Translations under genes and position numbers: made by a program
Assembly (NCBI RefSeq): GCF_036588685.1
Contig: NC_086373.1
Span: 42,904,001 to 42,968,000 of the forward strand
DNA from: Mytilus trossulus
Lineage: Eukaryota
Direction of reading: 5' to 3'
Length of the DNA: 64,000 nucleotides
The notes under the pieces: model-generated
Databases searched by the model: none
The model's input: only the letters and a program-made list of their open reading frames with translations
What the model was told of the DNA's origin: nothing
Shown: one piece after another, positions 2,805 to 63,254 of the stretch
Numbering within the stretch: the first letter of the stretch is position 1
How the letters are laid out: each line of letters opens with the position of its first letter

Positions 2805-5800
2805 TTACTGTGGCGTTGGTGCAGTCGGTTGTTCGTTTGGCTTAGTTTGATAGGATGCTTCCTCGTACGATGGAGGATTATATGCTATATTAGAATAACC
2901 CGCCATAGGGGGTTGCTGCGTTGGCTGGCCGGTTGGGTAAGTTGGCTGTCCGGCTGGGTAAGTTGGTTGACCGGCTGGGTAAGTAGGATATGTGTACTGT
3001 GGTTGATAGCCTGGCTGTTGTGGATAGTATGGAGCACTGTAGGCTTGTTGTTGAGCTGTAAATTATATAAAGAATATAGATACACGCAAGTTTAAAAACG
3101 CTATCGAAAGTTCATTTTCTAATTTAGGTTGTCTTTGACATAAATAAATAGATCTTTCAGGCTTTAATGCTAAGGTTGCAAGTGTCTATTGTCGTTCGTT
3201 GTTCCCCTGTTCCTTGGTATTACGCGACCCAATGCCTCGCGTGTTGTATAAAATACATTGCTTTGTCCATTGACGAAACTTATTTGAAGTGTTCACTTTA
3301 CTCTCTACTCAATAGAACTGTTGCAACATTCAACTCCTTGTTATGTAATAGGTTATGTAAAACCAAGATTTACACCGTGTCATGGGTTATAATCCAAATT
3401 AGTTTATTGTTAAGTTGATTTTCCTTCCTTGAGATATTTTTGGATATATGTGAAAGTATGTGGTAATCATGAAAATCTCAAAATAGTAAATAAAACTTAA
3501 CATTTTACTTATTTCAAGATTGATGTGGATAAATTGGTTGATATGTGGTTAACATTTGTTTGCACCTGTCCTATGTCAGGAACTTGATGTTCAGTGGTTG
3601 TCGTTTATTGATGATTCAGACGCGTTTCTCGTTTCTCGGCGTTATGTATTCGGGTTTAGTTTTCTGTAATTAGTTAATACTTCAGTTTCTTTATGTATAT
3701 CTCTTTCATATTCATTTGAAAAAATTTACTGTTTGTAATAACATGAATTGTTCTATATAATAATAATGTTCCTATCCCGGGCATAAAAACAATGCCGTAT
3801 TTGGCGAAACCTTTTCAACTTTTGATCTTCAGTGCTGTACAACTTTGTACTTTTTTCACTTTCAATCTTTTATATCTGGGCGTCACTGGTGAGTCTTGTG
3901 TGAATAAGGCGCGTTTTTGGTGTATTGAATTTTAAACCTGATGCTTTTTGTTATCTATTAATCATGTTTTTCTTTGTCTAATATGTTCTCCTATTTATTT
4001 GTATTGTAGTCCTGTAATATTATGTTGTCATTTCAATGTTATATTTAACTTTGCCATTAAAGTGCGAGGTTTGGCATGCCACAAAACCAGGTTCAACCCA
4101 CCACTTTTATTCCCCTTTAAAAGTGTCCTGTACCAAGTCAGGAATATGGCCATTGTTATATTATTGTTCGTTTCTGTGTGTGTTGCATTTTAACGTTGAG
4201 TCGTTTGTGTTTTCCCTTATTTTTGAGATATTGAGATAAGACGTGGCACGGTATTTGTCTATTCAAAATTCATGTATTTGGTTTTCATGTTATATTTGTT
4301 ATTCTCGTGATGTTTTGTCTGATGCTTGGTCCGTTTCTGTGTGTGTTGCGTTTCGGTGTTGTGTCGTTGTTCTCCTCTTATATTTAATGCGTTTCCCGCG
4401 GTTTTAGTTTGTTACCCCGATTTTGTTTTTTGTCCATGGATTTATGAGTTTTGAACAGCGGTATACTACTGTTGCCTTTATTTCTCGTTTGCAGAGTCAT
4501 TACATGATAAAGACTTGCAATATTAGTTAGAATTCAAATTTTTTGTATCATATATGTGTTTAAAAATAAGACATTACCTTTGCTAGAGTCTACTGACAAT
4601 GATTATGGTTAGGAAGGAAATTCAGGTCTGACTATAACAATACCAATTATTTTAAGTCTTTCTGGTTACGGAAGGCTGTACTGATATCGATAGTTCGGTA
4701 AGATCTGTTTACTGCTGGTTGGTCTTCTATTTCAACTCGTTTTTTTTTATTATATAGGTTGTACCGTTGGTTTAATTTCCTGTTTGAATGGTTTGACACT
4801 AGACATTTTTAGCGCGATTTGTTATAGCTTGTATTTCGGTGTGAACCGATGTTCCTTGTTGAAGACCGTTATTTGTCCTATACTATAATTGTTTACTTTT
4901 ATAAATTGTGACTTGGATAGAGAGTTGTCTAATTGGCACTCATACCACATCTTCTTATATCTATTTTCAAATAAACTTACATGCATTGGTAGTCACTGTA
5001 GAGACTGATTGATTATTAACAATTGTTGATCCATTGTAAGCTGGACGTCTTTTACAGAATCTACATAACAAAACCATTACCACAATACAAATTACGAAAC
5101 TGATTCCTCCTCCGATAGCTGAACCAATTATTCGTGCGGTGCTCCTGTAATATTTCCACATTTTAAATTAGTTTCACCATTATTTATCAATGTTGTACAA
5201 ACGTTTATACTAGCTTATTTACGGAATAAAAGTTCACTTGATAACTCCAAGTTTAAAGTCGAAAAATTTAGAGAAAAAAATAATGGCCGTAATACGCTTC
5301 CGTACTTTTTCACACGGTATGTTAATAAGAAATTTATTTTCAACATTTAAAAAAATCGTTTATTTCAGCTTAGACGTCAATTACAAATGACAAGTTACAA
5401 GTTCATATGTGAGAAGACCAAGTTCGCCATGCGTTGGTCGACGATTTAGTTTGAATATAAATGCTAGTTTTTCCCCTTTGAGTTTTCTCGGTTAAAAGGT
5501 TTCATATCGCAATACAAAAATGAAGCATTGATTTTCTTATTAATAAGTTACTTACCAATGACTGCCATAGGTGTAGTAATAATAGCAGTAATAACTACTG
5601 GTGTAGTAATAACATGTAGCCGTGCTCTGGATCACTACAAAAGAACAAAATTAATTACAAATCATATATATACATTTATATCGCTATTTTGTGCATTTTT
5701 CCTTTGATCTTTTTTTGTAATATTTGTTTATATCATGCTACTCGCTTGAGATGGAAAATATCGCTAGAAACTAAGGAGGCACGTGGCGTTGCTAATGAAA

Positions 5801-8800: not shown

Positions 8801-9843
8801 ATTTAAAAGGTGTGGTGAATCACACCTTCTATAAATTTTAAAATGAAAATAATCAGAAAACTTAAAATTAACAGTTTTAAACAAGGACGATCACGATAAC
8901 GATAAAGGAAAGGACAAAATCAGTAAATTTTATATCAATGAACATGTTGACAAGATAGAACAAGTTAACGGTATAGGAAAGTAATCTTCAATTGATATAC
9001 GATCATACATGTATACATGTAAACAGAAAAAATAGTGTTGACAAGGGCGATAACCGAAAGTATCACCTACAAGTATAATGATAAAATCGATCCACGTTAG
9101 TTGTCTTTATATGAGAGTCAAAACCAACTTAAATTTAGTATTATATTAAAATAGTAAGATATTAAAAGGACACTGTTCATCATGTCATGTATATTTATTT
9201 TCAAATTGTACATATAATAATGGTTCATTAATTATCTGCATAAATATTCTTTTGTAACACAGTTGGTCAACTAACCCATAACTTTTAATCGATATCATTT
9301 CTTCTTCTTCTTTAGGTTTTCAGTAGTCCTTCAATGATCTGAAGATTATTTACTGTTTGCGCGCGCAGCGTGGCCTATATATATATTTACAAAAACAAAA
9401 GGGCCAAAACAAAAACAAAAATATTTGGAAATAAATTTGAGGTGCATAATTTATTAAAATTGTGATTAAAACTATGTACATAGGCTAATAATGAGTTAGA
9501 TGAATTTGTGGAGAACAGCTGGTGTGAGCTGTTCTCTGAAAGTGTCGACTGTGGCGACAGCGACTGTTTGCATTGGCAATAAGTTCCACTGAGTTATGGT
9601 ATATGGAAAAAATGAGTATTTAAATGTATCTTTTTTGGTTGAAATGTGTCTAAAAGTATAATTATGGTTTTTGCGTGTTCTACTGTCTGATGGTATGAGA
9701 ATAGCCGATGGTATAGCTACGATTTGATGTACTATTTTATTTCATTTGTATTGACATGTGACTTCCTTCATAAATTATATAAAATTCTACCTACCAGAAG
9801 CAAGAAAAGTAAATAAAAACAAATACAACTGTCGTCCTTCCAT
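2805..9843 (-). CDS. CYYR1/Shisa-like Cys/Tyr-rich type I membrane protein, paralogue 1 (180 aa, 4 coding exons)
   Basis: Exons 9795-9843, 5556-5634, 4981-5144 and 2805-3055 join with GT-AG introns in phases 1,2,1 (543 nt). Protein: MEGRQLYLFLFTFLASVIQSTA (signal peptide), TCYYYTSSYYCYYYYTYGSHWSTAR (ectodomain), IIGSAIGGGISFVICIVVMVLLC (TM), RFCKRR..., QQQAYSAPYYPQQPGYQPQYTY(PTYPxGQ)3...NPPSYEEA...EQPTAPTPQ*. Family assigned from architecture only. Confidence 0.85.
6471..7393 (-). mobile_element. Non-coding retrozyme/PLE-like insertion: partial tandem repeat with a hammerhead motif and a 16-bp TSD
   Basis: CCAACATCAATATATA at 6455-6470 and 7394-7409. 6471-6835 is repeated at 7147-7393. A hammerhead-like motif lies at 6959-7003 on the minus strand. 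Confidence 0.65.
7645..7950 (+). repeat. Dispersed SINE-like repeat (related copies at ~1320-1600, 50650-50822, and 36840-36980 reversed)
   Basis: Shared GTTTAACCCCG...CCTGTCCCAAGTCAGGAGCCTCTGGCCTTTGTTAGTCTTG...CATTTCCATTCTCAATTTTA. Confidence 0.6.
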
Positions 9844-9935
9844 TTTGAAACTTCTTGGTAATTGTACTATTTCACGGATGTTTGATTTTAAAAGGCCCAC
9901 TGATCAATAGTAGAAATTCAAATACCTGAGTTCTA
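9844..9935 (-). promoter_or_regulatory. Conserved proximal promoter/5'UTR block of the paralogues (also ~23475-23565 and ~32720-32815)
   Basis: Minus strand GCCTTTTAAAA.CA.ACA.CCGTGAA...TTCAAAATGG is shared by all three genes, with a TATA-like TTTAAAA about 45-55 bp upstream of the ATG. Confidence 0.5.
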
Positions 9936-10690
9936 TAAATAACCCTTAAGGTACATAAGTATATTTATAAATTTTAAAATGTAACGGTATACATTCAAAA
10001 ATTTATATAAGTCCACTCGATGTTTTATATTAAGTAAGACCACAAATAAAGGATCGCAGGTGTAGGTACCGTCTAACGTATAACATTTTATTTTTTCTAA
10101 ATGGGATCATTTTTTATTTATTTCCCTCTTTTGGGCTAAAGAATAAAAAAGGTCCCAAAAAGTGAAAACATCTCGAGTCTGTGGGTTTTTTTTCTTTAAT
10201 TTTGAAACTTCTTCACCAAACGATGTGTACTCAAATGTTATCTTCATAAAACATATAACAAACTAGTTTATCTGAAGATTTTTACGACTTTTTCTTTGGG
10301 CTTGTGAGAAACCGGATTAAGAATAAATTATGACTCGCATGCACATGACCTCATGTGACAATAAGACAAGAAGGAGGCGTGGTACGGTACGATTGACAAC
10401 TTGATAACCGCGAAAGACAAGGATTGTAACTCCTGTTACGCGTTTTATATGACGAAGTTCACTGTGACACATTACGGATTTCAAAAGATGGACGAATTGT
10501 TGTGATTTTTCTCTTTTTTTCAGAAAATGTATATTATAAAACTGAGATAATCCTATAAACTTTTCCAATAACATTTTGGCAAGAGGGTTACTGCAAATTT
10601 ACAAAGTACAAATATATATATACATTATAATGATTGATTGATTGTTGGTTGCTTAACGTAACATTATGAAAATCAATTTATATATGGGCC

Positions 10691-11135
10691 TAGAATCATA
10701 TTTAAAACAGTGTAGTCCTGGCCATTGATTGACGACCTAAATTATCCCATCGACTGGTACAGATTAGGTGAACGTTTGTCGGTAACAATCACTGCTCACT
10801 ATGTAATTGTTAAAGACACTGAATCTGTGGGGTCACCAAAGGTTCTCAACACATAAATAAAGCAATTCGAAAAACGAATCCGGAATGATATGATGTGTTG
10901 ATTTATATCAATAATATAAATCAAAACATAAAGGTTATTCCTGAATAATTGTTCGAATTATTTAATTATTAAAGGCGTTAAGAACCTTTGGTGACCCCAC
11001 AGTTTAAATTCTATAATAAGTAAGAAGTGAGCAATGGTCGTTACAGACAAACGTTCACCTAATCTGTCCCAGTCAATGGGACAATTTAGGTCGTCAATCA
11101 ATGGCCAGGACTACACTGTTTTGAATATGATTCTA
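10691..11135. mobile_element. MITE with ~110-bp TIRs (TAG...CTA)
   Basis: TAGAATCATATT..AAACAGTGT.GTCCTGGCCATTGATTGACGACC at both ends, inverted. Internal IR TGTGGGGTCACCAAAGGTTCT. A second copy lies at 57022-57465. Confidence 0.85.
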
Positions 11136-12124
11136 TATACATCGATAAAAAAAAACACACACACATGACTATAAAATGAAAAACTTTATTTTTAAAAATT
11201 GTATCAATGAACAGCAAAGCATTATAAAACTTTATAAAAGCAATTTAGATTTAAGCATTAGAAATAAACGACTTGTTGACTATAAGTGACGTCAGAAAAG
11301 TAAACTTATTTTTCTGAAATAAAAAATACTGTAAAGTTAAAAGGAAAGAATACTTTATTTTGATACATTTTTGATACAAGTTGATTGTCAAATAAAGGCA
11401 GGAGGGATAACTTGAGTGCTAAATTTTGAAAAGCACAATGACATATGTATCGCGTACCGTAAGTACCATGTGTATATTGCATGTCTTAAACAAACTTCTG
11501 TTTTTTTCCCCGGGTTGGTCGTTTTCGGTATTATGACTGCAACAAGAATAGTCAGTAAGTCCAACTAGCCTGTCGAATAACCGACAGTTTTGTAGAAATG
11601 TCAGAGTGTTTTCTTCTCCAATTCACATTTGACTGATATATATTTAAAGTTGTTGTATAATTCTTGCCAGACGACAATTATAATCAAAGACGTAATATGA
11701 TCAGACAATAGTGTTGCTCTTTATACGAACATAGTATATTATTAGAACAATCTCATTACTTTCTTCTCTGTTATTGTGAATTGCGGTATAATTTGCATTT
11801 TCAAAGTTCTGATATTTTACAGTTTAAATATTAATATATTGAAATCCATACCCCCGTATGTACAATTCTTGGATGATAAAAAGCATTTGTTTTATATGTA
11901 TTGAGACATACTCAATAAGAAAATGAATATGAAAAAAAAACTTTAAAAATTTTCTTGTTATTAATTATTTTTTCTGATAAGCGGAATATGTATTGGTGAA
12001 TCGAATGACCATATTCACAATGCTGTCTTTTCTTTTGTTATTGAAGTAACTTTGTTAGATTCGTTTTGTTATAAGTCTTCCGTTTATATAAATCAATTTG
12101 TTGTACAATGTGCTTGCGAATCAT

Positions 12125-15100
12125 CTACTGCATGGGTGCAGTCGGTTGTTCATTTGGCTTAGTTTGATAGGCTGCTTGTTCGTACGATGGAGGACTGAAA
12201 GCAGTATTAGAATATCCCGCCATAGGGGGTTGCTGTGGTGGCTGAACGGTTGGATAAGTTGGCTGACCGGTTGGGTAAGTTGGTTGACCGGCTGGGTAAG
12301 TTGGCTGACCGACTGGGTAAGTAGGATATGTGTACTGTGGTTGATATCCCGGCTGTTGTGGATAGTATGGGGCACTGTAGCCTTGTTGTTGTTGTTGTTG
12401 TTGAGCTGTAAATCAAGCAAGAAAATAATACACTGAATTTTAAAATACTATTGAAAGTCATCGGCATAAATGGATTGTACTTATGTAGCAGTCTTTCTTT
12501 TTTCGCGTACTTTATATTAAGCTGATGTTCTCATTAATTATACGTTTTCAGTTTACATATAAGTGAAGCCTTTTGAGTCTCCTTTGGGTGTCATTTGAGC
12601 TTGTAATATTTCAACGTTCCTCTTACAATTTATTAATTAGAACATGTTTTCAAAATATTTAATGAAGCAAGTTGAAACTGCATACATTTGCATATTGACG
12701 TATTCTCTATATCGACTTTATCTTTTGTAGACTATATATGTCTCCTTTCGAGTTTTATTTTTTATACCGTTGCATGGTAGAATAAAAGTAATGTGATCTG
12801 AATCTGATGGCACATAGTTAACTAGACATCAAATACTTGTACCGAATTTGTTAAGAGGATTTCATAATAAATACTACATGACCATTGCTAAATGTGTGTG
12901 GTCGTAAAATTTAAAGTATACTTATTCCTTATTAGTTAATATTTGTGACTTGGATGGAGAGTTGTCTGATTGGCACTCATATCACATCTTTTTATATCTA
13001 TTTTCAAATAAACTTACATGTAGTCACTGTAGACACTGCTTGGTTATTTACAATTGTTGACCCCGCGTAAGCTTGACGTCTATTACAGTATCTACACAAG
13101 CAAACTATGACCACAATACATATTATGAGGCTGATTCCCCCTCCGACCGCTGATCCAGCTACTCGTGTGGAGCTCCTGCAATATTGTTCACATTTATCTA
13201 ATGTTCCTCCTATTTTTAACTTGTTATATTAACAGAGATAGGGTTCATCCCTCTCCCCCTTTTTCCCATTTTGTTTTACTTGAAAAAAGGGAAATCAGAA
13301 TTCAAAGGTGTCATAACCTACTTGGATTTGAATTATAAAAAAATAAAATAAAAAATAGTTCTATACACGAACTATACAATTGCCCTCTGCTTATAATTTA
13401 TAAGAAAAATATAGAGTATAGAAATTATGAAGAAAGTATACTGTTCTTCGTCGGCATTTTCTTTAATCAATCAGAAAATTTTATTTGTTGAGCTCGATCC
13501 GGCAATACAGTTGACTTTATTTTTTTCGTATGCATGGTAACGAAAAATTCCCTTAAATAGAACTGTATCATCTGCATACATAAGAAAATATAAATAGAAA
13601 AAATAAAAAAAGAAGATGTGGTATGATTGCCAATGAGACAACTATCCACAAAAGACCAAAATGACACAAACATTAACAATTATAGGTCACCGTACGGCCT
13701 TCACCAATGAGCAGAGCCCATACCGCATATAGTCAGCTATAAAAGGCCCCGATAAGACAATGTAAAACAATTCAAGCGAGAAAACTAACGGCCTTATTTA
13801 TGTAAAAAAATGAACGAAAAACAAATATGTAACACATAAACAAACGACAACCACTGAATTACAGGCTCCTGACTTGGGTCAGGCACATACATAAATAATG
13901 TGGCGGGGTTAAACTTGTTAGCGGGATCCCAACCCTCCCCCTAACCTAGGACAGTGGTATAACAGTACAACATAAGAACGAACTATAAAAACAGTTGAAA
14001 AAGACTTAACACATCAGATAGACAAAAAATAAAAGTGAACGTGGCCGGGTACTTATACATCCCGACACAAAAAGACACAATGAACAGATCTGAGAGTACT
14101 TGCAGTTATCTGACAGCTAGTTCAAAGCCTTTAACAACTAATAACAAAATCATGCCTCTAAGACTAAGCAATTAATCCGTACACATCCAACATACAATGG
14201 ATTTAGTGTAAAGACGTCATAAACAGCCAGAGAAAAAACATGACCTTGTGCAATGCCAAGTTACAGGTATCGGCAGATTGTACATCCATGAAAATGTATA
14301 TGTATATAACATACTAGTAATATTTAGTTAGCTTTTAATCTACTTATAACAAAGTCAATATGTATACCAATAAAAACAACATTCAATGATCTTATCACAA
14401 TGTTAAATAGGTAACCTTTAAGAATAAGTTTATTTAAAGGAGCGACAAGTTTACATGGATCATTTCTAAATTTCCGGGCACGGTTAACAACATTTCCGTA
14501 AAAATGAGGATGTTCTATCCCGTTTGAAATAAGTTTTCAACAGATACAACCAAACTTCAAAACCAAATCTTTATATCTATGGAAACATTTAGTAATTTAT
14601 GGTAACGATATCCCTGGTTTAATAATTTACTAGTAATGGAAAATTAACAATAAGGAACGAAAAAATCGTCTCTTTTGTGGAAAATTTTAGTGTGTAGTTT
14701 CCCGTTTAAAACCGAAATATCTAAATCCTGGAAAGGACAGTTTTTCCGAATACATTTGATTTATTTAAAGTAAGTTCCTTGGAGTAAATTTCAGCAGTAT
14801 GTTGAGAAAATTCTTGATTATTTAAGGAAAAATATCATCAAGATAACGGTAAGTGTTGTTGAATTTAACAATTAAATGCAATTTCGACGGGTCTTTACTG
14901 AGTTTAGTCATACACTGTGATTCGTAACAGTACAAACACAAGTCTGCTATTAAAGGGTCACAATTAGTGCCCATGGGGATACCTACAACCTGTCGATAAA
15001 CTTTGTTGCCGAAAAGTACGTAAATATTATCAAGGAAAACATTAACAGCCTTAATCATCTCATCACACCTCCAGTAAGTATATCTTGCAAATTTACCTTT

Positions 15101-18100
15101 CTCATTAGAGAAGAAGGCTTTAAATGAGTTGCAGCAAATATATCTACATTCAGCTTTACCAAACGACCATTTAATTAAATAGGAACACTTTTGTTTAATA
15201 AGATACTGTGGAAGTGTAGTGTAAAGAGTAGAAAAATCAAAACTTTTAACAGAATCAAAAGGACCATCAAAAGCCCGCAATTTATCTAAAACATCCAAAG
15301 AATTTTGTACACTCCAAAAATGGTTTATACCACTATGTTCATATATTTTATTACAATAATTTATGATAAACTCTTTAATAGTAGTTAATGAACTAGTTAA
15401 GAGCACTGACAGATTAGTTGTAGAACACTTACTAGAGGCCGAGATGAAACGATATTTAAATGTTTTTTTGTGTAGTTTAGGTAGCAAATACATAGTAGGG
15501 ACCTTCAAATGTTCAGAAGAAGCCTTAAGCTTTGATGTGGTTGTGATATGCTTGTTTACTATATGACTCACTGTGGAGCAGATGGACTTAAATGTAGATG
15601 AATTTAAAATTTCATTCTTAAGAACGTCCGTGTAGTATTTACGTCATACCACAACCACATTGTTGGCTGCGTAGATCATATTTAGCTCATATGACCGACA
15701 ACCTTGACTTATGAATTAATTTCTAAAGTGATTTTAAAATTATATACAAAGATTATAAACTTGAGGCTCTTAAAAGCCTGTGTCGCTCACCTTGGTGTAT
15801 GTGCACATTAAACAAAGGAAACAGATGTATTTATGACAAAATTGTGTTTTGGTGATGGTGATTTGTTTGTAGATTATACTTTACTGATCATTCTTGCTAC
15901 TTACAATTTTCTCTATCTGTAATAAACTTGGCCCTTTAGTTATAGAGGAAAATATTTTGTAAAAACTTACCAAAATTTACCAAATTTATGAAAATTGTTA
16001 AAAATTTACTAAAAAGGGCAATAACTCATTAAGGGGTCAACTGACCATCTTGGTCATGTTGACCTTTTTGCAGTTCTTTATTTGCTGAACATTCTTGCTG
16101 TTTACAGTTTATCTCTATCTATAATAGTACTCAAGATAATAATCAAAAACAGATAAATTTCTTTAAAAATTACCAATTGGGGGCAGCAACCCAACAACCA
16201 GTTGTCCAATTCATCTGAAAATTTCAGGGCAGATAGATATTTACTAAATAAACAAGTTTACCCCTTGTTTAATTTGCTATAAATGCTTTGGTTTCAGAGT
16301 TATAAGCCAAAATCTACATTTTACTACTATGTTCTATTTTTAGCTATGGCGGCCATCTTGGTTGGTTTGCCGGGTCATCGCACACATTTTTTTTAACTAG
16401 ATACCCTTATAATGGTCGTAGCTAAGTTTGGTTAAATTTGGTCAAGTTGTTTCAGAGGAGAAGATTTTTGTAAAAGATTACAAAATTTACGAAAAATTGG
16501 TAAAAAATGGCTATTAAGGGCAATAACTCCTTAAGAGGTCAACTGACCATTTTGATCATGCTGACTTATTTGTAGATCTTATTTTGCTGAACATTATTGC
16601 TGTTTACAGTTTATCTCTAACTATAATAATTTCAAGAAAATAAGCGAAAACGGACAAAATTTCCTTAAAATTACCAATGCATGGTCAGCAACCCAACAAC
16701 GGATTGTCCGATTCATCTGAAAATGTCAGGGCAGATAGAGCTTGACCTGATAACAATTTTACGCATTGTCAGATTTGTTCTAAATGCTTTGGTTTTTGAG
16801 TTATAAGCCAAAAACTGCATTTCCCCCCTATGTTCTATTTTTAGCTGTGGCAGCCATCTTGATTGGTTGGCCGGGTCACGCCACACATTTTTTAAACTAG
16901 TTACCCTAATGATGATTGTGGCCAAGTTTGGTTTAATTTGGCTCAGTAGTTTCAGAGGAGATGATTTTTGTAAAAGCTAACGACGGACGAAGACGACGAC
17001 GACGGACATCGACGACGACGGACGACGGACGCCAATTGATGAGAAAAGGAGATAATGATTCTCCTTGCACCAATCCATCATTTCTTTGGAAGAAATTTTA
17101 GAAATGTCCTTCAAGTTTCACACAACATATAATTTGGGCATACATAGATTCAATAACTGGTTTTTATTTTACAGTTAATAAGTTTCCACTTATACCGCAT
17201 CTGATTAAACTTAACCACATTTGAAATGGGATACACTATCAAATGCATTTTTATAATCTATGAAACAGCAATAAAATCGTTTTCTAATACGCATAGACTT
17301 AGCAATTAGACAATGGAGTGCGAAGATTGCATCGGTTGTTTAATCATAACCTGGTGTAAATCCAAACTGTGAATCGGTTACTTCTTTTGCTTTTTGTTTC
17401 GCTCTTATTGGTGAGCCTGGTGTAAATAATTGATGTAAAAAGTTTCCACACATGGTTTACGAGATAAATACCACGATAGTTGCCAGGGTCGTCTACTGCT
17501 CCTTATTTGTAAACTGGTATTATTGTGCCAGGATTTTTTATTTTGTTGGTTTACGGATCCGCCGACCAGATATTTCCGATTTTGGTAAAAAAAAAAAAAT
17601 GTAGTTTCGTGTTTTTTTTATTTCCGCCGACCCTATAAAATGCATTAGCCATTAAATAAAAAAAATAAATATCGGCTTTATTAAATTTTACCTTCGAACT
17701 GTGTTATTTTCAAAACCTGTCGTTTTGTTTTGTTCTAAAAAAAAGATACAATCTAAATCTAGCCAATCGCTGTTAAGATGAGTTGTATTTTCCGACAATA
17801 GTTTTACGAAACGAAACTTATGTTAATGGTCTGTTACAGTAAGATCGTTTTAATTTTTTTGTCACCATTCCGTAAGATATATAGTTTGACACATTTTATT
17901 ACGCAGTTGTTTACAATGTATGTCATCGTTATAGACGAAACAGATCCTTCTAAACGAGAACGACAGCTAGTAAAGATTACGGAAGTGCCATCCGTACTAT
18001 AGACAGCAGTCCTAATTATCAGTCAAAAGATTAGTATAAGAAAGTTGAAGAAAAACTGAAAGAGATAGAAGTCTATGAACCAGTTAGTATGTTTGATTTA

Positions 18101-21100
18101 GAGCCAGAAGACAGATATGATAGACGAAAGTGGATAACAGACATGAAGTTGACCTTTCCTGTTTCAATTTACACCTATCAACATGGAAACTATATGGGTA
18201 ATCTGAATTTTCTTTGGCGGATACCCGAAGATGAAAATCTTAGAAATGATATGAAACAGTTATCTGCAGTTGAAAAACTCAGAAAAGAAATTCCTATTTA
18301 TTCCTCAAGACAGGTAAGGAAAACATTTATTGACAGGTACACCAGAACAGGACTTAAACCAGCTGTTTTACGGGAGATGTTCAGATTCTTGACAAATGAT
18401 GATACAGCCCCAGAATCTTCCTTACAAGAGAATGTCGACATCAGAGTCATAGTAAGCATAATAGATGCTGACGATCCAGATCTTTTATATGATCTAAGAA
18501 AAAATAATGGTTATCCAAAATGTGGAGATTTGGAGCCTTTTTGGAAAGAGCTGAAATCCTTTCTGAATGAAAAGACAGGTGTACATGAAAGACGCGGAGC
18601 CGACCATGAGTACATGCATTGTGCTATATCCCTATCCGATTTACGTAACCAGATAGCATCATGCTTGACAAACATAGCCCGCATTCCAAGTTTGTCTACA
18701 ATAAGGTACAATTTTTGGCCACCAAGTCCAACTCACAACAATGCAGCAAATTATACTGGGAGGTTTAAGGTCAAATTTGCAGTACAACAAAGACTTCTGC
18801 ATGGCCAACATGAAGACAAATGCTTTGCGACACTTCAATACAGTTTATTTAAAGAAATGGTTGTTAGATGGAAAGGACATGCAAGATTTATTTCCTTAGA
18901 TGATAAAGCCATTGTACCAGTTGGAGAACCTGCTCAGCCATTATCTACTGGAGTGAGACCTCACAACAGATCTTTGACACTTGGGGTTGATCATTAGTTG
19001 CACTCTATCATGATTTTCATGTGTGTGGAATTGTTCCATCTGTGCTTTTTTCTGTTTATATTCCTGATGACAGACAGTTTCTACGAGGGGCCAGTATTTG
19101 TAACTTTAAAAGATAAAATCTTTCAGCCTTCAACAGCTATACGTCATGCTGTTGAATCAGTTGACATACTTCGTAGTCTGACAGGGGACATTAATCTTGA
19201 TGTACACAGATGGCGTTCCAGATCACAGGTCTACATTTTGGTCAGTGCAAAAAGCCTGTATACTGATATTTATTTCTTTAGACTTGGACATGCTGGTCAC
19301 TGCACGCACAGCACCAATGGCTAGCTATGCCAATCCAGCAGAGAGAATAATGAATCTCGCTTTGCAAAATGTAGCCATGGAGAGACCAGACATGATAGAA
19401 GACTATTGAAGAATGATGAAGAGAAACGGCTCAATGACCAAAGTTAGGAACATAGACGAGAAAGAACCAGATTTCAAAATTGCACTATTACAGTCAACAA
19501 AACATGTTATATCAAAACTTGATGACAGATTCAGTATACTGAAGTGGAAGGACAGGAATGTAAACATGCACGAAAGTGCAAATATTGATGATATAGAAGA
19601 CATTGGTCATTTGCTGAGTATTCTTGACCACCTGGATGGAGGCCTCTCAATTGAAAAACAGAAAACAAAAAAAGGATATAGAGAAGTTTAGATGCCTGAA
19701 GAATTTTATAAATCTGCACACCAGAGAAAGACAATACACATACCAAATAAAGAAGTGTGGAAACTGTGCCTATTGCACAATAAATCCCCCTCGTCTATCC
19801 CAAGAGTTGTTTGATAATCTACACTGGCTGCCAGATCCTGTCCCAGTTCAAAAAGATAGTGATGAATACAAGTCTTTTGATGATGTCTATGGAGTAGATT
19901 GTTATCAACGGTACCAGGATTATAAATTAGTACGCCAGACGTGCGTTTCGTCTACACAAGACGCATCAGAGTAGAAACAGATGATTCTGGGAGATCCAGC
20001 TTAGTCAGCAAAAACGTCCCTACATCAGCTGATCTTTGTCACAAAGGAGGTTTTGTAGCAGCAAGAGCGAGATCATTTATTATTTGCAGAGATTGTGGGA
20101 AGAGGAGAGTAGTGTACTCTGGCAAGCGTCTAACTATAGACCAGATGAGATAAATAGAGCGGATACAAGAAGAGTTCATATTTACTTGTGGGGCCCCATT
20201 ATTTCCAGATGGAGTCATGAAAGAGAGTGTTTATGTCAGAGAAGGTCAATCGTGTAACAGTGAATGGAAACTACCTATTATTCAGATGTAATTGGATTGA
20301 ATACACCAGTTTGTTTCTTCTGTGGTGATACTGAGGTGATCACAAACCAAGAAATACAGAACCTCAAACAAGAATATGGAATCGTTCGACCTATATGCGA
20401 CACATACTTCCAGGGTGGAAAGAGACCAGCAATGACGAATGCACTAAAAACCAAACAAGAAAATGAGATAAACATACAATTTTATTTCAAAAACAGTCTT
20501 TAATAAGCACACAAGAAGTGTAAAAACATTGACATTGCATTAATAAAACTGTCAAAGACATTTACATTTGACAATATTAAAATATTGTTTTAAAACATTG
20601 TTTGATGATTTTTTGGGGTCTCCCATGATGGTGGTATACAGAAATCAGTTAATATATATCAGAAGGGTACTATAGTCATTTACCTTAAAAATCAGTAATT
20701 TTTGGGCCTTTTTTTTGACCGACCGACCCGACCTTTTCAGATGAAAAATCCGTAAACCAACAAATTGAAAAAAACATGCCTAATGCTGTTAACCCATATT
20801 TCTGGAAACTCGCCATGACTCAATATACGGTTAAACAGTTTGCAAAATACTGGTTTGATGAAGTTTATGCTCGTTAATATAAAGTTGTTATAATAACTAA
20901 AGGACCAAAAGTTAAAAAAAAATTGTATATGACGTGCTTTTTCTGCTTTGTACAAAAACCAATGCTCGAAATACAATAAAATTTGTTTGCACATGCGAAC
21001 GTTGACTACTGCAGAAAAATGAATTTTACCAATATGGCATGCATTGAATGTATTTTATTTTAGTGCCTGTCTGCCTAAGAACCAGGCAGTGGTGAAAACA

Positions 21101-23474
21101 TGACCAAAACAAAACCACCCAATTTGACATTGATTTCAGTTCATAATATTTAGTTATGCACAAAAATAACCTTCATTTCCATTTTTTGTTCTGGTAATAG
21201 AAGATACAATTTGGTTGAAATGCACTAGAAATTAACGAATAAGGGGACTGGATAACTCTATAATTTGCTATCATCCTAACCAATTTTCTAACCAAGTTAT
21301 TTGATATTACCAGACACACACAAACGAAAGACTAATACTTTTTAAATCTGGATGATGGTTGGTATCAAATAGCATGATTAGGTCGGTGGGTTTTTTCATG
21401 TTTTAATTTTTACCTTAATTGCCTGATTCTTACAAAGACTTGCTTTTTAGAAATATACAATACAAGTGCATTGACTTTACACATCAACGATATAAGGATG
21501 AGGCTTCGAATCCTTATATCGTTGATATGTCAATTCAACGCACTAGTATCGTCTTTATACTACAAAACAAACATTGTTGTTTAATTTGTTAATGTTACTA
21601 TTTGATTTAGATATTGTGAAACTTCCCCTTTTATGAAAAAACATTCTTTCATGAATGCAGGCGGAGAAATGTACAACACAATCGAAAATGTACATTACCT
21701 GTTGAAATGGGCAATCTATGGTGAACGAATTTGTTTGATAATGAAATAAAATATCAAGAATAAGCATTAACATAATAGTTTATAATTTGCAAACTGAAAA
21801 TATTAACAAGTGAAATATGATTTTTTTTCTCTAAAAATTGCAAAAGCAATATTATTAAGTTTGAGTCGTTGTATACATTGTAAACAAGAACAGGTCGAAT
21901 AGGTCGTATTCATAATTAATTATAATTTCGAAAATTTCTATTTAAATATTCATGAGGAAAAGTGATATCAGGTCAGTGACTGTATATGACATAGAACGCA
22001 TTTTTGACTGCTCAAATAGAACGCGTGCAGTATAACTTAAAATACTTTCGAACTCCTAAATGAATCGAAGCACATGCTGTTTCTGACTACAATGTGTGAC
22101 AATTCGCAATTGACATATTTGACATAGATACGACAACGTTCATGTTGGCTTTTCAAAACCCCTTCCTCTAAAATAACACATAGAAAGCAGTGTGCTTGTT
22201 CACAAACATAAAAGAGAGGTTCACAAAAGAGTCTACATTAACGCTCTACACCTATACACACCGGACATAGAAATAACCGTAACTGTCCTAATCAGAATCG
22301 AAATAATTGATGCAAGCTATATATATACTTTATTGTAGTTTGAACATAGATAGGCATTATCGTGATTATTTTTGCCATTATTTTTTAAACATCCACAAAA
22401 TCTTGGTATTTTTTTAAAAGTAACTTACCAGTATGAGTAGTAATAATAACAGTAATAACCACTATATGTGTAGTAGTAGCACACAGCCTTACACTGTATC
22501 ACTGAAAAAATAAACATAATAGCATAAAGATATTTTGAGAGTGAAAGGTACAGATTAAGGCTAGCACTCCAACCTAAAATTGACAAAATAATCTGAAGTA
22601 ATATTCTTTTCTTGTATTTTTTTAACATTGATTTCGTCTCTCTACGCTCTGTTGCAAATGTAGTTTGAATATATATAACCCCTCTAAAAATCTGTCAGAT
22701 CTGTCATGAGAAAAATCTAGAATTATACTTCTCTTTAGTTGTTTTTTGACGGAATCTGTCTTACTTTAGAACCATTTGGACAGTAACATTTTAAGGAAAT
22801 TTCTTATTTTATAAGGAACAATTATATCCTCTTTCTATAGTATGCACCAGTACTTGTAAGAACATGTTTTCTAATCTATTTTCGAAAATTAAATCGATAT
22901 AATTTATTTTGTGACTATATTTATTTAACCACTTTTTAAAATATTTGTTTGTCCATTGAATTAATCTAATATAAAACTGTAAAGAAGATATTGATCATGA
23001 AATTTCTTTTTTAACATAATATTTTGGTAAAATCAAAATTGTATTATTAATACACGTTTGATCAAATAAAAAATAACTAGTCTTAGTCGACGTTTAATGT
23101 GCATGCGTAATTGCTGCAGCTGTGTCAAATTTTAATGATATATCACAAGTACCTATTTCGAAATGGGCCGAAGCATTTTAATCAACTTAATTATGATAAG
23201 GATAATAGAATATAGCATATAGAAGAAAAAAATATTAAAAGATGTATATTTCATGTATTTCATAAAATTGAAATGGTCAGCGTGTTACACTGATGTGGGT
23301 TTGTTTTTTTTATTTTATATGGCGTGTTTTTAATCGACAGTATTATGGTATCTACTACGTATATGTAAGTTTTGTATGTTCATTTGTTCTCACATTTGCC
23401 TTAACATTCATTAAGATTTACCTACCAGAAGCAAAAAAAGTAGATACAAACAACCAAAACTGTAGGCCTTCCAT
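12125..23474 (-). CDS. CYYR1/Shisa-like Cys/Tyr-rich type I membrane protein, paralogue 2 (186 aa)
   Basis: Exons 23426-23474, 22429-22501, 13018-13175 and 12125-12405, GT-AG, phases 1,2,1 (561 nt). Protein: MEGLQFWLFVSTFFASVIQCKAVCYYYTYSGYYCYYYYSYWSSTRVAGSAVGGGISLIICIVVIVCLCRYCNRR...Q7GYSAPYYPQQ...SPPSYEQA...EQPTAPMQ*. Intron 2 is ~9.25 kb and filled with TEs. Confidence 0.85.
13600..15670 (-). mobile_element. Penelope-like element, 5'-truncated RT plus 3' non-coding region
   Basis: ORF 14822-15571 contains YLLPKLHK, SFDFSTLYT, GIPMGTNCDPLIADL and YRYLDDI. A degenerate continuation (CPF.DLDI...KRDDFSF) lies at 14640-14800. Confidence 0.8.
15760..17050 (-). mobile_element. Second copy of the same HINE-like family (~2 repeat units, 5' hairpin missing)
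   Basis: Reverse-complement match to 51760-53997, including the GAC/GGAC microsatellite at ~16980-17030. Confidence 0.8.
17526..20780 (+). mobile_element. Degenerate Zator/TP36-like DNA transposon
   Basis: TIR core TTTGTTGGTTTACGGAT near 17542-17558, with its reverse complement near 20748-20764. Fragmented transposase at ~18000-20460 shows SLDDKAIVPVGEP, HDFH, TDGVPDHR and RTAPMASYANPAERIM, plus C-terminal CxxC motifs. Confidence 0.75.
19899..19968 (-). mobile_element. 70-bp retroposed hammerhead-containing fragment with a 7-bp TSD
   Basis: GAGTAGA at 19892-19898 and 19969-19975. The insert RC is (C)TGATGCGTCTTGTGTAGACGAAACGCACGTCTGGCGTAC...ATCCTGGTACCGTTGATAACAA. Its removal restores transposase YGVETDDSG. 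Confidence 0.75.
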
Positions 23475-25944: not shown

Positions 25945-28900
25945 CTACTGCATGGGTGCCGTCGGGTGTTCATTTGGCTTAGTTTGATAGGCTGCTTGTT
26001 CGTACGATGGAGGACTGAAAGCAGTATTAGAATATCCCGCCATAGGTTGATCTGCTGGCTGACCGGTTGGATAAGTAGGCTGACCGGCTAGATAAGTTGG
26101 TTGACCGGCTGGGTAAGTAGGATATGTGTACTGTGGTTGATATCCCGGCTGTTGTGGATAGTATGGAGCACTGTAGCCTTGTTGTTGTTGAGCTGTAAAT
26201 CAAACAAGAAAATAATACAATGATTTTAAAATTCTATTAAAAGTACATTATGTGAATTAAGATCGGCATAACTCAGTTGTACGTTGTACTCATTCTAATC
26301 CGTTTTTCGATTGTTTTATACTTTAAAAGCTGATATTATGATTAATTGTATGTTTTACTAGTATAACATATTAGTGTAGCCGTTTGATTCTCCTTTGGGT
26401 GTCGTTTGAGCTTAAATAATTACATATAACATATTAGTGTAGCCGTTTGATTCTCCTTTGGGTGTCGTTTGAGCTTAAATTTATTTTATCAATGTCAAAT
26501 TATTATTAATAATATGCAAACGGTCCTCGGACCATTTAATCATTTCAACATGTTGTCAATAAACAGTAAAAATCACAAAAATACTGATCTCCGAGGAATA
26601 TTCAAAATGGAAAGTCCCTAATCAAACGGTAAAATCAAATGATAAAACACATCAAACGAATGGACAACACCTGTGGTGTTCCTGAATTAGTACAGGCATT
26701 TTCAAATGTAGAAATTGGTGGATTGAACCTGGTTTTGTAGCGCTAAACCTCTCACTTGTATGACGGACACAATAAGTAGAATTGTCAAAACATGAGTACA
26801 GCAATCATCACTGAATTTTCTAAAAAGTTATAATTTCACATGGGGAATGGTGGTATGGCAAGGTTAAAGAATTAAGAGTTTTATTAGAACTAATTTCAGG
26901 ATCTCAAAGAGACCGAGATTTAAAATTATTCAAGAGTCCATATGGTTAATACCACTATGCGAGTAAAATAATTTAGTCAAAATATTTAATAAAGCAAATG
27001 TAAACTGCATTTACGTCTTGACAATTACTTTATATCCCCTTTATTTTTTGAAGACTATAGTGCTCCTACCCATTTTTTTCTTGCGATCAGCGCATCGTAG
27101 AAAACAGGTTATATGATTTTCATTTGAAGTCACATGTCAGCATACAAAATTATATAGTTGCACATGAAATTGGCCAATTCATGATCACTTTATATTATCA
27201 TATATACTACATTATTGATTTTAAATATGAATACTTAATCTAAAGACACTAGTGTTTCTTTATTATAGATAACCGCCTCGGTTGTCTCGCCTAGAGTGTT
27301 TGATGTCGTTGGTTAGAACCCTATGCGGCCTCAAATCAAAGAATTGTAAATTGTAAATTGCTGTTTGTCCGTTAAGCAAGTGACATTTATGACAGTTAGA
27401 GCAAATATGATCGCCTCGCAGTCAGAATAATGTTTCTGGGTATGGTGACATATCTTGCTACAGACTGTTACCATCGTGAACTGTGAAATAGCATGTTGTA
27501 AATCTGGTCTACAATTCGTTCGCTATGCCGTGTCTGTTGTGACGTTTTTTATTTTACTGAACGGAATCTATGTATAACTGGTAAATCATTAAGCTAGAGA
27601 TATCGGTACCACAAATTGCTTAAAACCTTTACTTAATTCTTCAAAAGATATAAAGATTTGGTTGTACTTATTTCGAACGGGATAGCACATTCTCATTTTT
27701 ATTGACATGTTGATTACTGTGCCCGGAGATTTCGAAAAGATCCTTGTAAACTTATCGATCCTTTAAATAAACTTGTTCTCAAAGGTAAATAGTTATCAAC
27801 CAATTCAACACTCTAATGAGATCATTGAATATTGTTTTATTGGCTCTTATATCGATTTTGTTATCAATAAATAAAAAGCAAACGAAAAAATATACAAATA
27901 CATATTCATGGATCTACAGTCTGTTGATACCTGTATCTTGGAATTGCACAAGGTCATATTTTTCTCTGACTATTCACACCGTCTTTCTAATAAATCCATT
28001 GGAAATTGGATGTGTACTGATTGATAATTTAGTCTTAGATTCATGAATTCTTTAATTAGTTATTAGTGGCTTTGAACTATAGCTGTCTGTAACTGTGAGT
28101 ACTCTCAGATCTGTATTTAGTGTTTTATTCTGGTTGGGATACCCAGCCACTGATTTTTATAGATCGTTCTTATGCTGTACTGTCCCAGGTTAGGGGAAGG
28201 GTTGGGATCCCGCTAACATGTTTAACCCCGCCACATGCTGTATTTATGTGCCTGTTTCAAGTCAGGAGCCTGTAATTTAGTGGTTTTCATTTGTTGATGT
28301 GTTACTAATTAGTGTTTCGTTCCTTTTTTGTACAAAATTAGGCCGTTAGTTTTCTTGTTTAAATTGTTTTACGTTTGTCATTTTGTGGCCTCTTATAGCT
28401 GACTTTGTGGTATGGGCTTTGCTCATGGTTGATCTCGGATATACGGTGACCTATAGTTGTGGATAGTTTCTGTGACATTTGGTCTCTTGTGGAAAGTTGT
28501 CTCATTGGAAATCACACCACATCTTTTTTATAAGCAGGATTTATATTTCATATCACATAATCATGATCTTTTTTTTTTGAATATCAAATTATTTGCAATG
28601 TACTGGACGTTGAACAACTATCAATTCATCGTTACTAGAAAACTCTTACTTCCAATAGTAGTAACTGTAGGCATTGATTGACCAGTAGTAAATGTTGACC
28701 CCATGAAAGCTGGACGTCTATTACAGAATCTACACAGCAAAACCATTACCACAATACACACTATGAGGCTGATTCCTCCCCCGACTGCTGATCCAATTAT
28801 TCGTGCGGTGCTCCTGAAATATTGTTCATATTTATTTCATGCTCTATCCGTTTTTTACTTATTATATTGAAAGATGTAGGATTAATTCCCTTGTTTCAAT

Positions 28901-31900
28901 TCACTTGACCATGCAGGGTAGAATCTGCAAGCTATTAAAACCGCCTACTGGAATTTGAATATAAACGAGTCTATGTCATACACTAAGAACATATTTCCAA
29001 AGTTTTACATATTGCTATAAAATAAAATCATTTTAGCACAAGATGTTTACCTTCTTTTACACAGGCACTTGTCTCAGAAAAAAAAATCCTATATACCTTA
29101 TTAAAACACATTTTTTTCAGAGGCAAGTGCCTGTGTTCTTTTATACAAGATAAGAACCCAGACCTTCATCTTTATAAAATATACTAGAACACACCCGTGA
29201 TATCGCGGGTCCGTGACTGATTTAAAGTATGTAACTATGCGCAAGACTTATATTTGTATTAGTATTGTCATCTGATAAAGTCATGCCGATTATAAGATAG
29301 TTTTCACAGTTTTCTCTGCTTTCAAATCATTCTGTTTTAACCCGTCTAACTGGAACTTATCAATTATTGGTAATATTAATTATTTGGAAAACAAAAGGTC
29401 CTGGGATGGAGTATTTTTTTAATCAACAGCATTGTCCTATATTAGTTATAAATTAAAGTTGAATTCTTTGATTCGCTGTTTTACGTCATGCCCGCTAACA
29501 AATTGAAAACTGTACCTATACGCCTTATTTTTAGTATTCGTATTGTTATCTGATTAAAATACTACAATAGGTAACAATTTGACAATTTAGTAGTGTCAAC
29601 CCTATGATTATGACCCGTGTATATAGCATATCCTGAATACACCGTTTGGTGGTGCGCCTGTCAAATACGGAACGTACAGATAAGGTAAGGTAACAGATGA
29701 ATATACTATTGGTATCGGTATCGGACTCGACCCGGAACTTCTTAATTATTGGCAATATTAATTACGTGGATAACAAAAGGGCCGGGAGTGGTGTAATTTT
29801 TAATCTACACCTTTGTACTATATTAGCTATATATAAAGTTGAATTCTTTGATTCGTCGTTTTTACGTGATGACGGCTGACAAATTGGACCTCGTAATTTT
29901 AGTATTATAGATATAACTTTATACAAAAGATCTACGATTTCAAGGTCACCGATGGATTGGCATACATATTTTTCTCATTATGTGACTTTTTTTTTCATCG
30001 AAGAAAGGTGAGTTCGAACGTATTCAAAGACTTATTTGTCACAAATAGAAGGAAATTGTGTAACCAAACTAAACCTCATCACCATTTTCTATAATTAATC
30101 ACCAAATTTCGTTCAGACTAATTCCTCTCGGCGACAAAGTGAATTTAATTTTTTTCGTATTTATTTCTACAAAAATCATTCGAAACAGGGGATAATAAGT
30201 TAACGTGTTAAGATAAAATGTTATAATACTGATATAACTTATATATATCACCAGCTTTTTTTATTTAACGAACTTCGGGAGACGAGCAAACAACTTGATT
30301 TATTCCCTATAATTTGGTCTATGGTTTAGAATAAATATAAGTTAATGTAGCTCCACCTTCAATATTATTTCTACTTTAGAAAAAAAGGCAAACTGTTAGG
30401 AACCACAAAGGACCCCTAATTTGTTTAAAGTAACTTACCAATAATGAGAATAATAATAGTAGTAGTAGCTGTAGCAGTTATTTCCATAGTAACAAGAGGC
30501 TTTACACTGTATCACTGAAATAGAAACGTATTTATAGAAATATAGTTAATAAACAGCTGCGCCATGAGCGCATGATACGCCCGACGTCTTATGTCGAAGT
30601 TATATGCAATAATAATAAATAGTTTCTGAGAAAGTTTTAAGCAATATAAACCATATATAGTTTTTGAGACATTGCGGGAAACCCCCCACCCTGGTTTTTT
30701 TTTTACACAAAAAACTAAATATCACTAAAATAAAATTTTGAATCAAACCCAAAAAGTATACAGATCTTTAGATCAATATAACAAAGAAGTGTAAAGTTTT
30801 AAGGAATAATCATAATTTTTTATAGAGATACGGCACAACATGTAAAAAAAACTCCCCCTTTTTCAAAATACCCAATCAATAAAAAATGAAATTTTGAATC
30901 ATCATCAAAAAGTATACAGATCTTAAGATTGATATAACAAAGACATGTGTAAAGTTTGTAGCAATAATCATAAATCAATTTTGAGATATGGCGCGACATG
31001 TAAAAAAAAACTCCCCCTTTTTTACAAAATACTCAATAACTCAAAAATGAAATTTTGAATCATCACCAAAAAGTATACAGATATTGAGATTATTATAACT
31101 AAGAAGTGTTTAAAGTTTTAAGCCATAATCAAGAATCGTTTTTGAGATACAGTGCGACATGTGAAAAAAACACCCCTGTTTTAGTTACAAAGTGCCGTAA
31201 ATCAAAAAGTTTAAATCTAATTTTCACCAAAAAGTATACAGATCATTTGACTATTACAAGAAACAACTATATTAAGTTTCATGAAATTTGGATAAGTCGT
31301 TCTCAAGTTACGGTGCGACATGTTAACGCCATACAGACAGACGGACAGACAGACAGACGGACGGTACGACAGACGGTACGACGGACGGACGGACGGACAC
31401 CGGACATGTGTATACCATAATACGTCCCGTCAAAATTTTGACGGGCGTATAAAAAGATTTAGGGGCGGGTATAGCGGAAACCCCAACCTACAATTGACAA
31501 CATTCATAATAAAAACAAGTTTACTTATATAAAGTGTGTTTAACAATCATCACGCTGCGCTCGGTTACAACTGTAGTTTTAATCAGTCTTAACCTTTCTT
31601 AAAATCTGTCAGAGAAAAGTTTTAAACACTTCATCTTATTTTAAATAACCATGTTTGACAGCTGTCCTACCCTAAAACAATTTTGGACAGTTTTGTCTTT
31701 AGAAAATCTTGATTTCCATTAATACCGACTTTTTTTCCATATAAACGAAAAATAAAACAAATCTTTGACGTAAATGAATTTAAAAATTATGTATTCTTTG
31801 CCAAAAGCCAAAAGACTTTATCAACGTCTAGAATAGTTATCAAAAGGTACCAGGATCATAATTTAGTACGCCAGACGCGCGTTTCGTCTACATAATACTC

Positions 31901-43890: not shown

Positions 43891-43898
43891 GATATATA

Positions 43899-63241: not shown

Positions 63242-63254
63242 TATGTCTGAATGT

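Follow-up and report, generated by a model that had tools for sequence, protein, structure and literature searches.

What does a membrane protein do with an ectodomain of some two dozen residues, 40-48% of them tyrosine? The question is raised by three tandem genes, A, B and C, in a 64,000-nucleotide stretch of the mussel Mytilus trossulus (GCF_036588685.1, NC_086373.1, 42,904,001-42,968,000), hereafter the window, to which all coordinates refer. A preliminary description of this DNA had proposed a hypervariable peptide, serving as either a slippage-diversified recognition loop or a membrane-tethered cross-linking peptide rich in 3,4-dihydroxyphenylalanine (DOPA). Judged by their sequences, the three proteins are homologues of the Shisa-like (STMC6/CYYR1) family that fail its six-cysteine definition. 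They are a truncated variant and not members by definition, because their two cysteines align to Cys1 and Cys2 of the six-Cys domain. We put at about 0.5 the probability that they act as PPxY adaptors for NEDD4-family ligases, with the Tyr-rich loop as the client-contact surface.

Gene models were built from self-comparison of the window together with splice signals. Each gene has four exons on the minus strand and every intron is GT-AG. Gene A (9843-2805) encodes 180 residues, gene B (23474-12125) 186 and gene C (32719-25945) 178, the last being letter for letter the RefSeq M. trossulus protein XP_063444445.1 (P0004; LOC134724957). Each product starts with a predicted signal peptide and an ectodomain of 23-25 residues; a single transmembrane helix follows, then a CxxC-basic stretch and finally a Pro/Gln/Tyr tail. 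Exon 2 measures 79, 73 and 76 nucleotides (nt) in A, B and C, is bounded by AG/GT, and is entered in phase 1 and left in phase 2. A hydrophobic leader is encoded by exon 1 together with six codons at the start of exon 2, and the remaining codons of exon 2 give the ectodomain. Exon 3 contributes the Gly-rich helix, the CxxC-basic residues and a linker rich in Thr, and exon 4 the tail. The exon 2 peptides contain 10, 11 and 10 Tyr and two Cys separated by 8, 9 and 5 residues, respectively. With signal cleavage placed after residue 22 by the -3/-1 rule, the mature ectodomains would be 25, 23 and 24 residues long with 40%, 48% and 42% Tyr, and Lys, Asp and Glu are absent from all three. These were the only Tyr-rich, Cys-containing peptides in a six-frame scan of the window, and an exon scan found three in the real window against none in any of 15 block-shuffled windows. 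The three exons as first reported, with their coordinates, lengths, Tyr counts and Cys spacing, were borne out (minus strand, in frame, AG/GT-bounded). The predicted ectodomain lengths also agree with the first figure of about 23-25 residues. Usual cut-offs for micro-exons are shorter than 73-79 nt, so that label does not suit exon 2. Its in-frame length changes are unremarkable, since they are expected of any working internal exon.

Downstream of the loop, the transmembrane segment has a hydropathy of 2.5 over 21 residues. In the related protein P0001, AlphaFold placed helices at residues 3-26 and 48-77, the second with a predicted local distance difference test (pLDDT) score of 69-85. CxxC plus basic residues mark the cytoplasmic end of the helix in all three genes. 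Every tail carries one PPSY followed by an acidic residue, with a single Lys in the part encoded by exon 4, and in genes B and C the motif reads PPSYEQAA. No conserved YxxL/I signalling motif was found in the tails of the three genes. A sequence search of the PDB returned only transmembrane-helix likeness, the best being APP C99 (E 8e-5), and a Pfam match of P0001 to MLANA was discounted because it scored 20 of the 27 bits required.

The layout of the proteins agrees with STMC6, namely a predicted signal peptide plus one helix, Cys at the cytoplasmic helix end and a Pro-rich tail with [LP]PxY. The six-Cys pattern of that family, C*C*CC*CC (PMC5578492), is absent, each mature ectodomain having two Cys. 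In hhalign the two-Cys and six-Cys sets matched with 99.7% probability, a partly circular figure, and the two Cys fell on Cys1 and Cys2. A six-Cys paralogue in this genome (L042) has a Tyr loop between Cys1 and Cys2, before CC...CC, in an exon of the same phases, and scallop P0068 likewise has a Tyr-rich Cys1-Cys2 loop before CC...CC. In the ESM Atlas the top three matches of P0004 were mollusc CYYR1-like/shisa-5-like clusters (0.95, 0.91 and 0.90); matches with the N-terminal part scored under 0.9 and serve only as a lead. Together these results uphold the Shisa/CYYR1 link first suggested for the locus. The simplest reading of the sequences is that the two-Cys loop arose by loss of the CC...CC half. 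The number of such losses cannot be told from a tree of 45 helix regions (68 columns): most of its forks are open, and the two-Cys/six-Cys labels need 4-5 changes although the starred branches force only one, so single and several truncations were not told apart. Among 59 proteins scanned with the CYYR1 model PF10873 (cut-off 31 bits), only three six-Cys proteins passed (P0046, P0059 and P0077); several two-Cys relatives were sub-threshold and P0014-P0016 had no match. A genome search with PF10873 was blank but uninformative, as its controls were equally silent.

The two-Cys Tyr-loop design is not confined to this locus, judging by its recurrence elsewhere in the genome and in oysters and a chiton. 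A related transmembrane exon, used as query against the genome, returned 20 matches (E up to 1), gene A among them. Seventeen of the other loci were read up to 10 kb upstream, and because Tyr exons were reached only via transmembrane-exon matches the resulting count is a lower bound: at least nine loci carry a two-Cys Tyr exon predicted with matching phases, one has a Tyr exon without the loop, two are six-Cys and five gave none. The loop is 10 residues long in seven of the nine, five of which lie in one cluster (C1:20.42-20.47 Mb). The wider tandem cluster there (C1:20.42-20.51 Mb, L025-L032) holds these five predicted exons of 67-76 nt and one Tyr exon without the loop, and a further tandem cluster lies at C3:6.96-7.08 Mb. 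A profile hidden Markov model (HMM) search of 1.84 billion representative sequences returned 84 matches, 82 of them new. Classed by rule, the new matches comprise 29 two-Cys Tyr proteins (two doubtful), 10 Tyr-rich without a loop, 11 six-Cys and 32 others. Ten matches were looked up and nine were named: seven from oysters, one from scallop (six-Cys with a Tyr loop) and one from chiton. The loop is again 10 residues long in 14 of 27 measured relatives (range 4 to 15), and over these 27 its composition is 60% Tyr, 12% Ser, 8% Arg, 4% Gly and about 1% Lys. The window loops of 8, 9 and 5 residues would then be shortened forms of a widespread 10-residue loop. The chiton loop CYFSYYYSYYYC equals the mussel L027 loop at 11 of 12 residues, a likeness that argues for constraint over diversification. 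An [LP]PxY motif occurs in 17 of the 29 two-Cys Tyr relatives, and PPxY in the related proteins P0001, P0002 and P0014-P0018.

The PPSY tail, which the preliminary description had not weighed, gives the best mechanism. Shisa-like proteins are short single-pass regulators of trafficking, and two of the comparison proteins, PRRG4 and Commissureless, use the motifs GLPSYEQAV/GLPSYDEAL (PMC5578492). Human CYYR1 is reported to bind WWP1, WWP2 and ITCH through PPxY at late endosomes and to drive lysosomal turnover; the same report describes WBP1L as an adaptor for CXCR4 degradation and proposes STMC6 proteins as NEDD4-ligase adaptors (PMC11399591). We favour a ligase-adaptor role for A, B and C because of these CYYR1 and WBP1L ligase data and the PRRG4/Comm-like motif in genes B and C. 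On this model the signal peptide would be cleaved to give a type I topology, the two Cys would form a disulfide and the CxxC stretch would be palmitoylated. PPSY would bind the WW domains of WWP/ITCH/NEDD4 ligases, and ligase recruitment would lead to endosomal or lysosomal turnover of partner membrane proteins, as for human CYYR1. The loop and helix would together select membrane clients, the loop acting as a short-range contact. Selection would keep the loop aromatic, and slippage in runs of TAT/TAC (TAY) codons would alter its length as a by-product.

Several observations weigh against this adaptor reading or the kinship behind it. Both hhalign sets were chosen by one HMM, hence the circularity of their match, and P0001, P0002 and P0004 had no match to Pfam Shisa, CYYR1 or WBP-1 even at E 10. 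AlphaFold gave no confident fold for the ectodomain (pLDDT 41-45); mean pLDDT with AlphaFold2 was 47 for P0004 (9 sequences) and 56 for P0001 (28 sequences), with 43-45 in its ectodomain. CYYR1 has three PPxY motifs where the mussel genes have one each, and 12 of the 29 two-Cys relatives have none, some perhaps being partial models. With a dozen or more paralogues, the family is larger than a housekeeping adaptor would require. The chiton-mussel likeness can also arise by convergence of low-complexity loops, in which case it is not proof of constraint. Direct release of a Tyr-rich peptide by gamma-secretase was considered separately, since an ectodomain that is short by nature can be cut without prior shedding (PMC13507816), and was set aside: human CYYR1, SHISA5, WBP1L and TMEM92 appear as low-confidence non-substrates in the table of PMC12219630.

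Does exon 2 reach the mRNA? Contigs from four public runs of four studies were aligned to 4975-5660 (13 contigs), their RNA origin being presumed from an intron-sized CT..AC joint. The exons of the three genes, all on the minus strand, are as follows.

9795-9843, minus: coding part of gene A exon 1, with the start codon and the bulk of the signal peptide; seen as a loose end beyond exon 2 in 3 of 4 runs.
5556-5634, minus: gene A exon 2, which completes the signal peptide and supplies the two-Cys Tyr loop, with 10 Tyr and a Cys spacing of 8 residues; joined to exon 3 in runs X8, X6 and X10.
4981-5144, minus: gene A exon 3, encoding a Gly-rich transmembrane helix, then the CxxC-basic stretch and a linker rich in Thr.
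2805-3055, minus: coding part of gene A exon 4, with the stop codon; Pro/Gln/Tyr tail that includes the 21-bp repeat (2920-2984), PPSY (2865-2876) and a single Lys.
23426-23474, minus: coding part of gene B exon 1, predicted by its splice signals and its resemblance to A and C; signal peptide.
22429-22501, minus: gene B exon 2, with 11 Tyr and a two-Cys Tyr loop of 9 residues; B-like contigs in X8 resolved in part only.
13018-13175, minus: gene B exon 3; transmembrane helix and CxCxxC-basic stretch.
12125-12405, minus: coding part of gene B exon 4; poly-Gln encoded by (TTG)7 (12383-12403), 21-bp repeat (12239-12322), PPSY (12182-12193).
32671-32719, minus: coding part of gene C exon 1; signal peptide; the complete gene model equals P0004.
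30439-30514, minus: gene C exon 2; two-Cys loop (5 residues), then a six-Tyr run whose length is 5, 6 or 7 among relatives.
28650-28813, minus: gene C exon 3; transmembrane helix followed by the CxxC-basic stretch, the same in all 6 edulis-complex sequences compared.
25945-26192, minus: coding part of gene C exon 4; Pro/Gln/Tyr tail that includes the 21-bp repeat (26057-26121) and PPSY (26002-26013).

Exon 2 is spliced in for genes A and C. In gene A the exon 2-3 joint (5143-5555) spans the predicted 411-nt intron with CT..AC ends in three of the four runs (X8, X6 and X10), and exon 1 letters continue beyond exon 2 in the same three. For gene C, C-type exon 3 continues into exon 2 as a loose end in 4/4 runs. 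Splicing of gene B is less well supported, as B-like contigs occurred in X8 with exon 2 visible only as a mixed loose end. In a 20-kb alignment swamped by interspersed repeats, the one visible joint linked exons 3 and 4 (3053-5024, all four runs), its gene of origin being ambiguous. Skipping of exon 2 in mRNA, which would have undone the original proposal, was not seen in any of the 13 contigs listed, although rare forms tend to be lost from contigs and the listing lacks three loose ends. The 9.3-kb intron 2 of gene B contains mobile-element remnants, with element-like open reading frame (ORF) remnants at 14822-15643 (minus) and 18035-20503 (plus); the two tested had no Pfam match at E 0.01.

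The paralogues also show signs of mixing. Run X10 links gene A exon 3 to an exon-4 variant placed by RefSeq in the C-type gene. RefSeq isoforms of M. californianus and M. edulis (P0005, P0006, P0014 and P0009-P0012) pair one paralogue's ectodomain exons with exon 1 or 4 from another. Gene conversion, cross-gene splicing or mis-mapping could each be responsible for these two patterns. In the A-type orthologues P0001 and P0005 (M. coruscus and M. californianus) the second half of exon 3 is C-like when compared with window 4981-5144, which suggests mosaic exons among paralogues.

We next consider whether the loop is a diversified, antibody-like recognition surface for variable non-self or gamete ligands, in which selection favours slippage and paralogue turnover and the PPSY tail clears the ligand. 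In its favour, antibody paratopes have a composition comparable to the Tyr-, Ser-, Arg- and Gly-containing loop of the 27 relatives, and tandem clusters occur here, on C1 and on C3. The most favourable variation is in gene C, compared across six edulis-complex sequences (the window, two M. galloprovincialis and three M. edulis models). Exon 2 has substitutions in 5 of 27 columns and a run of 5, 6 or 7 Tyr, giving five different peptides among the six sequences, against 0/54 columns in exon 3 (p = 0.003). By contrast, exon 4 has 10 of 83 columns substituted plus nine gap columns (five sequences), so that exon 2 does not differ significantly from it (p = 0.52), nor from the rest of the protein (p = 0.14). 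In run X10, gene C exon 2 has one Tyr codon fewer than the window, and in X3 it has as many; the DNA of this exon has one match in the genome.

Gene A argues the other way. Across three runs from three studies its exon 2 has no indel and differs at 4/237 letters, against 8/489 in exon 3; one shared difference is silent and the second, in X8, was not itemised. In exon 2, the M. coruscus and M. californianus orthologues of gene A have 3-4 changed residues of 27 and three gaps; in exon 3 they have 12-13 changes of 54. Between the paralogues, exons 1 to 4 differ at 31-38%, 21-46%, 27-35% and 9-16% of amino acids and have 0, 1-5, 0-2 and 3-12 gap codons, respectively. Nonsynonymous divergence (dN) in exon 2 is 0.11-0.30 and synonymous divergence (dS) is saturated, giving no sign of dN/dS above 1. 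Exon 2 thus exceeds exon 3 in gene C only: these comparisons indicate an exon that is length-labile, and variable in gene C, rather than generally hypervariable as had been claimed. The outcome that the preliminary description gave as a refutation, an exon 2 no more variable than the other exons, is half reached. Nor are the membrane segment and tail simply conserved, exon 3 differing by 27-35% and exon 4 combining few substitutions (9-16%) with the most gap codons (3-12).

A recognition role is further disfavoured by the lack of a conserved YxxL/I motif in the tail and by an ectodomain of 24 residues, which would hardly clear the membrane. On the other side, Mytilisepta gill shows over-representation of Pfam Shisa as a whole, not of the two-Cys subtype in particular (PMC5549309). 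On balance we consider diversified recognition unlikely. The same holds for its fullest form, in which the first Shisa-like hairpin became a single-exon, disulfide-closed Tyr/Ser/Arg paratope of about 20 residues, tandem-expanded, varied by TAY slippage and gene turnover, and wired by PPxY to NEDD4-type ligases for lysosomal clearance of the bound ligands. Of the slippage-diversified loop first proposed, slippage has support, whereas diversification is disfavoured by the near-constant exon 2 of gene A and the conserved loop motif.

Slippage itself is supported by saturated TAT/TAC exchange and by the one-Tyr length alleles of gene C, but to call exon 2 microsatellite-like is an overstatement. 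Tandem Repeats Finder at score 30 (93 rows) reported no repeat in any exon 2, and the longest pure triplet runs are 2, 3 and 4 units. Genuine coding repeats lie in exon 4: each gene has a 21-bp minisatellite there, and gene B has (TTG)7 as well. Aligned Tyr codons differ between TAT and TAC in 12/26 exon-2 pairs against 4/36 in exon 4, from three non-independent comparisons and with a comparator that conversion has possibly homogenised. Over 14 exons, adjacent Tyr codons are identical in 34/56 pairs (permutation mean 27.2, p = 0.04). TAT and TAC are equally used (TAC 50%). The claim that all length changes fall in TAT/TAC runs holds for the gene C orthologues (Tyr run 5/6/7) and fails for the 8/9/5 loops, in which Thr, Ser, Gly and Asn codons are involved. 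At L037:4374-7107 (C9:73.66 Mb), two minisatellites flank a paralogue's six-Cys ectodomain exon, each built from one of the exon's own ends. The first has 14 units of 94 bp with an acceptor site in each; the second has 20 units of about 67-76 bp with the exon 3' end, a GTGAGT donor in five, and alternating (TAC)4 and (TAC)5 (12 and 7 of 20 units). These could provide alternative ectodomain lengths, or be an inert or assembly repeat.

Such codon exchange would also suit an ectodomain that is a degenerate Shisa-like remnant with little specific role, the helix and tail being the active parts and the Tyr runs drifting by slippage. Consistent with this, 10 of the 82 new matches keep a Tyr stretch without the Cys loop, loop lengths range from 4 to 15, TAT/TAC is saturated in exon 2, and the ectodomain fold is not predicted. 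However, Tyr richness persists in mussels, oysters and chiton with TAC at 50%, which drift in a non-repeat exon would not preserve; the loop also has a modal length of 10 and gene A exon 2 is nearly constant across runs. A mere remnant is thus quite unlikely, and a ligase adaptor whose loop is kept aromatic remains the reading we prefer.

The high Tyr content (40-48%) bears on a third possibility, that the ectodomain is a membrane-tethered substrate of tyrosinase or peroxidase, whose DOPA or dityrosine cross-links tie epithelium to byssus, shell, periostracum or cuticle. Molluscs tan extracellular matrices, and the nine named matches with this design come from mollusc records only. Mussel foot proteins, however, are secreted and pair DOPA with Lys, whereas the three ectodomains have no Lys, the related loops about 1%, and the proteins are predicted to be membrane-anchored. 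The family also occurs in a chiton, which has no byssus, and in oysters, which cement as adults, and a PPSY degradation motif is unexpected in a structural anchor. We regard the cross-linking proposal as weak and very unlikely to be correct. Tyr sulfation expects nearby acidic residues, and none lies near these Tyr, which disfavours sulfotyrosine.

The rest of the window holds other features. Probable exons of a divergently oriented gene lie at 35588-35627 and 37455-37690 (plus), the second encoding a hydrophobic helix followed by CWCC and basic residues, with no Pfam match. A non-long-terminal-repeat (non-LTR) retrotransposon ORF of 901 residues occupies 46453-49724 (minus; RVT_1 E 3e-20, weak zf-RVT), with a 264-residue ORF before it. 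Reverse transcriptase fragments resembling long interspersed elements (LINE) lie at 39382-40685 (plus; RVT_1 E 4e-25 for 39678-40682) and 43087-43697 (minus). The intron-free 676-residue ORF at 61211-63241 (plus) has a coiled-coil-like stretch and a sub-threshold GDSL/SGNH match, and is probably a retroelement ORF1. An internally palindromic 450-bp element is present in two inverted copies of 96% identity (10691-11148 and 57018-57478), and a second inverted pair (43886-44318 and 45112-45879) has 94-97% identity; both resemble miniature inverted-repeat transposable elements. Repeats with periods of about 500, 161 and 125 bp lie at 15758-16998 and 51778-53998, at 30707-31244 and at 63231-63594, respectively.

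Shisa-like ectodomains are defined by six or eight Cys; here a much-duplicated mollusc subfamily keeps the first two and fills the loop between them with Tyr. Databases file it under "shisa-5-like", "CYYR1-like" or "uncharacterized", and we found no description of a two-Cys Tyr-loop Shisa-like subfamily in molluscs in the literature, where subscription papers and bivalve expression supplements may list the genes. The mollusc-wide truncated variant is apparently previously undescribed. At present this stands as a solid annotation of that variant, with function by inference. A 20-residue, single-exon ectodomain with natural variants offers a very small system for studying what Shisa-like ectodomains do. 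Were the loops indeed diversified binders coupled to ubiquitin ligases, they would constitute a new recognition system in bivalve immunity or gamete biology.

Among known systems, the closest records are the RefSeq Mytilus models XP_063444445.1, XP_071158204.1 and XP_052063346.1, which are labelled merely uncharacterized or shisa-5-like and leave the two-Cys Tyr loop undescribed. The foot proteins Mfp-3, -5 and -6 are likewise Tyr-rich mussel extracellular peptides but are secreted and Lys-rich, whereas A, B and C are predicted membrane proteins with no ectodomain Lys and with relatives in non-byssate molluscs. PRRG4 and Drosophila Commissureless are also short single-pass proteins with an extended PY motif (GLPSYEQAV/GLPSYDEAL against PPSYEQAA); their ectodomain is different, and we draw a functional analogy only, without claiming homology. 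Shisa proper (SHISA1-9, such as SHISA5/Scotin; PF13908) shares the overall layout and the Pro-rich PY tail, and NCBI names some orthologues "protein shisa-5-like". The mussel proteins nevertheless lack its eight-Cys domain, C*C*CC*C*CC*C (PMC10531659), and have no Shisa_N match. The nearest likeness in design is to CYYR1 (human Q96J86, PF10873) and the STMC6 proteins WBP1, WBP1L, VOPP1 and TMEM92, which share the signal peptide, short ectodomain, Gly-rich helix ending in Cys and basic residues, and PPxY tail; human CYYR1 has a similar Gly-rich helix and an ectodomain of just 32 residues (PMC12219630). The mussel proteins differ from these in having two Cys instead of six, Tyr runs in place of the CC...CC half, and genes in tandem arrays.

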